A stretch of 64,000 nt of DNA, from NCBI RefSeq assembly GCF_000737315.1, contig NZ_JMCB01000003.1, positions 217,394 through 281,393 of the forward strand; not shown here. The letters are read 5' to 3'. The stretch comes from Hyalangium minutum (GTDB lineage: Bacteria; Myxococcota; Myxococcia; Myxococcales; Myxococcaceae). A report on this DNA, generated by a model with database tools, continues below.

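Follow-up and report, generated by a model that had tools for sequence, protein, structure and literature searches.

Gene order and conservation of the locus

We think, with a probability of about 0.6, that the genes studied here make up the downstream end of a cell-envelope operon conserved in myxobacteria, in which a dedicated chaperone of the PEB4/PrsA/SurA class is coupled to a lipoprotein Rhs toxin and a giant protein is co-encoded in most lineages. The preliminary description had joined the giant gene, the parvulin-type PPIase gene and the Rhs gene by two ATGA overlaps and had noted a Shine-Dalgarno sequence ahead of the last one. Both overlaps and the ribosome-binding site are present in the window.

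Genes, junctions and right boundary of the locus
2..29857, + strand: gene of the giant secreted protein, its 5' end cut by the window edge; open from base 2, GC3 0.88, at least 9,951 codons in the window
29854..29857, + strand: junction 1, giant stop and PPIase start, ATGA
29854..30723, + strand: PPIase gene, encoding a PEB4/PrsA/SurA-class lipoprotein chaperone of 289 aa with one parvulin domain (Pfam Rotamase PF00639, 1.2e-18, above the cut-off)
30708..30715, + strand: Shine-Dalgarno sequence GGGGGAGG of the Rhs gene, 4 nt ahead of its ATG, within the 3'-terminal part of the PPIase coding sequence
30720..30723, + strand: junction 2, PPIase stop and Rhs start, ATGA
30720..44768, + strand: Rhs gene, encoding a lipoprotein Rhs/YD polymorphic toxin of 4,682 aa (Pfam RHS_repeat PF05593, 1.3e-46, six stretches; DUF6531; PT-HINT; seven copies of Glucodextran_B)
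44781..46247, - strand: convergent Ser/Thr protein kinase gene, right boundary (Pkinase, 2.5e-31), with 12 nt between the two stop codons

In the NCBI annotation the PPIase gene starts at a GTG located 11 codons downstream of the ATG at 29854. Met1 and the lipobox Cys21 (LSGC, codon 29914-29916) are invariant in an alignment of 16 PPIase orthologues, which supports the ATG at 29854 and hence the overlap at junction 1. The window PPIase is 100% identical to the H. minutum protein at NCBI. Among the orthologous loci, the same ATGA is found at junction 1 in L001, L002, L005 and L017. At junction 2 a 4-nt overlap also occurs in L001, L002, L005, L011, L012, L015 and L019, with TGATG in L004 and L017. 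Scans for promoters and terminators gave nothing on the + strand at the junctions, with an E. coli-type consensus that says little for a myxobacterium. Judging only by gene spacing, the genes are probably co-transcribed and translationally coupled.

When the orthologues of the PPIase were used as anchors (12 loci besides the window, PPIase 47-93% identical), the adjacency of giant, PPIase and Rhs genes was clearly seen to recur in other genomes. The same order with 4-nt overlaps is present in Stigmatella sp. ncwal1, in Melittangium boletus and in one JGI metagenome contig. Corallococcus sp. M34 has it as well, re-reading of its DNA showing that the junction is TGATG and that Rhs starts as a lipoprotein, and two error-prone long contigs also carry it. 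The order is retained down to 33-38% identity of the giant and 47-49% identity of the PPIase, and the three genes are collinear with those of the window (giant 33-55%, PPIase 48-70%, Rhs 34-64% identity). An Rhs gene, or a gene in the Rhs position, lies 3' of the PPIase gene in 11 of the 11 orthologous loci that extend past it (12 seen); L019 ends too soon for its downstream gene to be identified.

The giant gene is found upstream in L001, L002, L004, L005, L015/L016, L019 and probably L010, and it is absent from L003, L011 and L018, L017 not being assignable in this respect. The giant-less loci belong to Myxococcus sp. CA051A and two metagenomic relatives, and they read PPIase(-), PPIase(+), PPIase(+), Rhs, the signs giving the strand of each parvulin gene. 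In Hyalangium-type contigs the first two of these parvulin genes lie ahead of the giant, and according to BLAST three parvulin orthogroups are conserved across Hyalangium-type and Myxococcus-type loci. Consequently, the giant sits between parvulin 2 and parvulin 3. Since the most divergent lineages are among those that have the giant, its loss in the Myxococcus clade would be the simpler history. The three-gene block thus holds as a conserved and tightly coupled unit, but it belongs to a more extended locus that has three parvulin genes, the upstream two of which were seen in relatives. The invariant unit is the dedicated chaperone followed by the lipoprotein Rhs, and the giant is a frequent but dispensable third member. 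A trypsin-like lipoprotein encoded upstream of the giant in locus L007 was rejected as a core member, as tblastn gave no match to it in L016, L003 or L011.

The lipoprotein chaperone

The AF2 model of the PPIase (pLDDT 89.7) has helices at residues 55-120 and 237-279, and by this model the protein is predicted to contain both a parvulin domain and the flanking helical N/C-terminal chaperone domain. The top Foldseek matches of the model, over its full length, were PEB4 (3rfw, E 5e-14), HP0175, PrsA and SurA, while phmmer against the PDB returned HP0175 (residues 56-262) and PEB4. The PPIase shares with PEB4 from Campylobacter jejuni, HP0175 from Helicobacter pylori and PrsA from Bacillus the arrangement of a helical chaperone domain embracing one parvulin domain, and it is predicted to be lipid-anchored like PrsA. 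Those proteins are generalist foldases, whereas the PPIase is one of three paralogues encoded side by side at this locus, embedded in the operon and putatively linked to its clients. It also differs from them by a Gln in place of the first catalytic His. In the parvulin His pair, H222 is invariant, whereas the first residue is Gln134 in the window PPIase and in several orthologues, being His in most others, so the isomerase activity of the PPIase is uncertain. PrsA and SurA can act as chaperones independently of isomerase activity.

ATGA overlaps are common in bacterial operons, and they could reflect nothing else than the compact packing of a high-GC genome. The PPIase would then be a general periplasmic housekeeping chaperone, acting for example on outer-membrane proteins, and its position would be accidental. 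The generalist nature of PEB4, SurA and PrsA homologues in other bacteria, reflected in the names given by PDB depositors, speaks in the same sense. However, a metagenome scan yielded 80 parvulin loci, and an Rhs or giant neighbour was seen only in the three that are orthologous (at least 50% identity) and in 0 of the 77 others. The outgroup parvulin P0035, 31% identical, adjoins DsbA/thioredoxin genes. The association is therefore specific to one orthogroup, as the preliminary description had supposed in calling the PPIase dedicated-looking, and within it is conserved from 47% to 93% identity. Moreover, the locus itself holds a cluster of three parvulin paralogues. We thus consider a housekeeping role very improbable.

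The proline content of the putative clients is unremarkable (8.0% in the giant, 5.9% in Rhs), which counts against our preferred reading.

The Rhs protein and its C-terminal toxin

The Rhs protein begins with a lipobox-like LATAC, whose Cys22 (30783-30785) is conserved in L001-L005 and L018, and continues through the following regions.

Regions of the Rhs protein
31497..34379, + strand: Ig-like array (Glucodextran_B, Big_13, Big_5), with a weak match to the transthyretin-like CarboxypepD_reg behind it (27.9 bits against a cut-off of 32.3)
34407..38069, + strand: family-specific conserved region of about 1,220 aa, conserved in seven sequences, with many invariant Cys, Gly and Pro
38094..43265, + strand: DUF6531 plug and YD/RHS shell, ending in DPLG(4149)...DPSGL(4178), at motif level typical of the Rhs aspartyl autoprotease
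43266..43874, + strand: post-cleavage linker of about 200 aa with two Gly/Ala-rich hydrophobic stretches and no family match
43875..44294, + strand: pre-toxin HINT domain (PF07591, 1.7e-24; PDB 2lwy, a bacterial intein-like domain, 7.6e-18)
44295..44768, + strand: MafB19-type zinc deaminase toxin (HAE...PTCKLC), terminal 157 aa, of low GC

The solved Rhs shells 7q97, 8qja and 8h8a were the PDB matches of the protein by phmmer. For the family-specific region of about 1,220 aa, a seven-sequence profile found no sequence match in the PDB, and an AF2 model built from only five sequences reached a pLDDT of 38. The deaminase PF14437 scores below its cut-off in the window sequence alone (1.3e-4, 22.4 bits against 27). 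The family is a rare one: a search among 1.84 billion representatives gave 62 relatives, in which the domain is mostly C-terminal in proteins of many lengths, and MafB19-deam is matched by 36 of 38 family members, with 3.8e-21 as the best value. According to these family matches, the window domain is best assigned to PF14437, within which it has diverged. Its zinc motifs, LHAEALAV and NPTCKLC, are present, and H86, E88, C116 and C119 are invariant in 38 relatives. With Pfam, PDB matches and deaminase family members taken together, all the domain identifications of the preliminary description hold, that of the deaminase included.

The deaminase tip has a GC content of 0.55 and a GC3 of 0.69, against 0.70 and 0.87 for the Rhs body, which suggests horizontal acquisition of the toxin module. 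The Rhs protein of L010 aligns to that of the window only up to residue 4182. Beyond this point its C-terminus is different and shows a weak JAB-like motif, but neither HINT nor deaminase. This variation was observed in L010 as the only relative readable to its 3' end.

Delivery as a type VI secretion system (T6SS) effector was considered and rejected: Pfam finds no PAAR or VgrG domain in the Rhs protein, a lipoprotein signal peptide is present, and the neighbouring genes are unrelated to T6SS. Rhs proteins of this class are known. In Myxococcus xanthus, Rhs4 and Rhs5, of about 4,000 aa and with a signal peptide, mediate the discrimination of kin and need neither T6SS nor outer membrane exchange for it (PMC10433427, a review citing Vassallo et al. 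2020). They reside on Mx-alpha prophages together with immunity genes (PMC10433427). About the export and delivery of such large signal-peptide Rhs proteins of myxobacteria, the 2023 review says only that they are not T6SS-dependent (PMC10433427). Compared by the description in that review, the window Rhs is likewise a myxobacterial Rhs/YD protein in the range of 4,000-5,000 aa, with an N-terminal export signal, no PAAR or VgrG, and a C-terminal region that varies between relatives (here one relative, L010). In contrast, the window locus is chromosomal, syntenic across genera, has parvulin genes in front and shows no immunity gene as far as the window extends. PMC10433427 mentions neither a PPIase nor a giant as partner of Rhs4 or Rhs5.

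The module order also resembles that of the teneurin-like proteins (TLPs), which run from Ig-like adhesion modules through a transthyretin-like domain, an insertion region, a plugged YD shell and a DPxG autoprotease to a variable C-terminal toxin, HINT types included (PMC13018210, Nat Commun 2026). The Myxococcota TLPs are predicted to be SPII lipoproteins (PMC13018210), and the window Rhs has a lipobox, with the transthyretin-like match below its cut-off. However, Pfam finds neither an NHL propeller nor an FN-plug in the window Rhs. TLPs almost always have a downstream immunity gene, whereas the window Rhs has none, and associated PPIases are not mentioned in PMC13018210. Furthermore, the region following the predicted cleavage site is about 500 aa long in the window Rhs, far above the C-terminal domains of about 15 kDa in TLPs (PMC13018210), a difference that also counts against our preferred reading. 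The H. minutum TLP listed in PMC13018210 is another protein, of 2,032 aa, which aligns with the window Rhs at the YD repeats only and for which tblastn at E <= 1e-3 gave nothing in the window. Membership of the TLPs is thus rejected for now, on the grounds of the missing NHL and FN-plug matches and of this distinct H. minutum TLP; the region of about 1,220 aa could hide a cryptic propeller.

No immunity gene was found downstream of Rhs in the window, where the convergent kinase gene leaves no room for one. A 183-aa ORF on the + strand (44784-45335) was rejected as a candidate, being antisense to the bona fide kinase gene. Beyond the kinase lie an Rpn/YhgA-type Transposase_31 gene and then housekeeping genes. 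The missing immunity gene is atypical for an antibacterial polymorphic toxin used on kin and counts against reading the locus as a toxin operon. It would be expected, on the other hand, if the locus had a social or adhesive role, with Rhs serving in teneurin-type interaction and signalling or against prey only, the giant in the matrix or in adhesion, and the deaminase being a vestige or used only on non-kin, so that immunity is not needed. In L010, too, the genes directly downstream of Rhs lie on the opposite strand. The M. xanthus rhs insertion MXAN_6679 alters motility and predation and not kin killing (PMC10433427, PMC3150448), and an enrichment of TLPs in social bacteria has been described (PMC13018210). 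Against such a role, the catalytic H, E, C and C of the deaminase are intact, both self-cleavage modules keep their motifs, and the divergent C-terminus of L010 together with the low GC of the window tip is what active polymorphic toxin systems look like. Taken as a whole we give the social reading a slim chance, although the missing immunity gene and the MXAN_6679 reports on motility and predation leave a place for a non-kin or non-lethal role of the toxin.

The giant protein and a proposed export pathway

The giant ORF is open at the left edge of the window, and it is listed from GTG 41 merely because no stop precedes that position. We compared its start in four MAG loci found by contig search; in the Hyalangium and Cystobacter MAG contigs it lies about 415-450 codons further upstream. 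The N-terminus of the relatives is a classical Sec/SPI signal peptide (...LPLTAWSA|AVTS) with no lipobox. By comparison with relatives, whose orthologous genes are called at 9,679-10,033 aa, the full H. minutum giant would have about 10,400 aa. Homologue searches with the giant N-terminus and with the Rhs middle region returned fragments only and no full-length proteins.

Regions of the giant protein
2..6500, + strand: N-terminal Ig-like Big_7 array of about 2,100 aa (Big_7, E=3.9e-103, ten stretches in the first half)
7560..21210, + strand: super-modules made of LVIVD propeller, Big_5, TIG and TIG, at least five rounds (Pfam matches per piece)
21212..27750, + strand: part with no Pfam family, whose translation shows further LVIVD-like and Ig-like sequence
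27755..29854, + strand: Cys-rich C-terminal tail in which beta modules alternate with six CxxGxDxDGDGxxD repeats of the acidic double-disulfide type (NCBIfam NF033662, 1.2e-28)

Within the super-modules, LVIVD matches start at 7562, 11558, 13763 and 16724, Big_5 matches at 7958, 9947, 13982, 15644 and 20078, and TIG matches at 8552, 10265, 12125, 15986 and 19580. In the last 2,900 aa or so, the C-terminal third, Pfam finds nothing. Motifs such as GLSIVNIADPAQP and GVELWNVS are visible in the translation of 21212..27750, and this part is collinear with the relatives at 33-55% identity. The final 1,450 aa hold 46 of the 59 Cys of the giant. The tail is variable, with no alignment in Stigmatella or Melittangium, and only L015 has it in common with the window.

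The preliminary description had tentatively cast the giant as the adhesin or scaffold and Rhs as the payload. These putative roles are weakened by the three Myxococcus-type loci, which keep their parvulins and Rhs without the giant. A tripartite apparatus of this kind, in which the giant docks and presents the Rhs cocoon with the PPIase as assembly factor, would be loosely similar to TcA with TcB-TcC. The giant remains coupled to PPIase and Rhs even where its own identity is 33-38%, which argues for a shared function. It carries Ig-like domain types related to those of Rhs, and its variable, Cys-rich tail of Ca type could match the variable N-terminus of Rhs as an interface. However, three parvulins and Rhs occur with no giant at its position in the Myxococcus-type loci, Pfam detects no TcA-like domain in the giant, and the C-terminus of the giant shows no recognisable anchor or sorting signal. 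We therefore regard the apparatus as unlikely, with a small chance of being right.

As in ABC (Tc) toxins, an Rhs cocoon would surround a self-cleaved C-terminal toxin, and a very large partner is encoded next to it. Here, however, Rhs is one lipoprotein chain and not a TcB and TcC pair, and the two large genes are separated by that of a chaperone. A Tc toxin proper was rejected for want of TcA: the Pfam domains of the giant are all of the Ig-like, TIG and LVIVD types, to which NCBIfam adds the acidic disulfide repeats at the C-terminus, and no TcA-like domain was detected. CDI or two-partner secretion was also rejected, as neither the three proteins nor the genes around them contain a CdiB/TpsB or TPS domain. 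It could still be imagined that the locus encodes a hitherto unrecognised, T6SS-independent surface delivery machine of myxobacteria, a Gram-negative and Sec/Lol-based analogue in function of Tc toxins or CdiA, whose three parvulins assemble the giant into a fibre of about 10,000 residues with Ig, TIG and propeller domains, docking the lipid-anchored Rhs cocoon toward prey or rivals. In that case the Myxococcus loci that lack the giant would represent a reduced form. We consider this version decidedly unlikely.

For a conserved operon of chaperone and Rhs with an optional giant, which is the reading we prefer, we hypothesize the following pathway. The genes would be read as one mRNA, on which the 4-nt overlaps let ribosomes re-initiate on the next ORF, and we propose that the chaperone would in this way be made where and when its huge clients are. 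All three products would cross the inner membrane unfolded via Sec, the giant by its signal-peptidase-I signal and the chaperone and Rhs by signal-peptidase-II signals, the latter two becoming lipid-anchored. The tethered chaperone could capture the emerging chains, prevent their aggregation and aid folding of the beta arrays and the YD cocoon in the periplasm. The Rhs shell would enclose the C-terminal region cut at DPLG...DPSGL, in which the PT-HINT domain, as a second self-processing module, and the deaminase follow. The lipid-anchored Rhs would be shown on the cell surface and the deaminase would be delivered to other cells on contact, with no participation of a type VI system. In this pathway we infer the chaperone-client relation, the surface display, the delivery and the target.

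The locus could mainly provide a testable entry point to the biogenesis and export of T6SS-independent Rhs proteins. The parvulin, whose gene stands directly before the Rhs gene and is usually coupled to it, may act at the first step of an Rhs export pathway and is a candidate accessible to genetics, and loci with and without the giant offer a natural comparison for what the giant protein adds. The preliminary description had known of no system pairing a giant protein, a foldase and an Rhs toxin. This stands for the PPIase and Rhs, since no paper linking a parvulin to an Rhs gene was found in the literature searched, but the Rhs class itself is known (PMC10433427) and PPIases beside giant genes have been noted in Omnitrophota. 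What is new here is an Rhs polymorphic toxin locus with conserved, coupled and apparently client-dedicated parvulins and an optional giant.

If our reading is true, the locus would be an example of periplasmic foldases dedicated to giant beta-rich clients, for which the Omnitrophota association is an independent parallel. The giant-gene loci of that phylum carry an adjacent Rotamase_2 PPIase (bioRxiv 10.1101/2023.11.21.568195), so that in both cases a parvulin-type PPIase is conserved beside genes of giant extracellular proteins in a predatory lineage. The Omnitrophota loci differ by their T2SS/T4P-like secretion genes and by having no Rhs toxin, and their giants are larger, of 30,000 aa or more, with other domain content.

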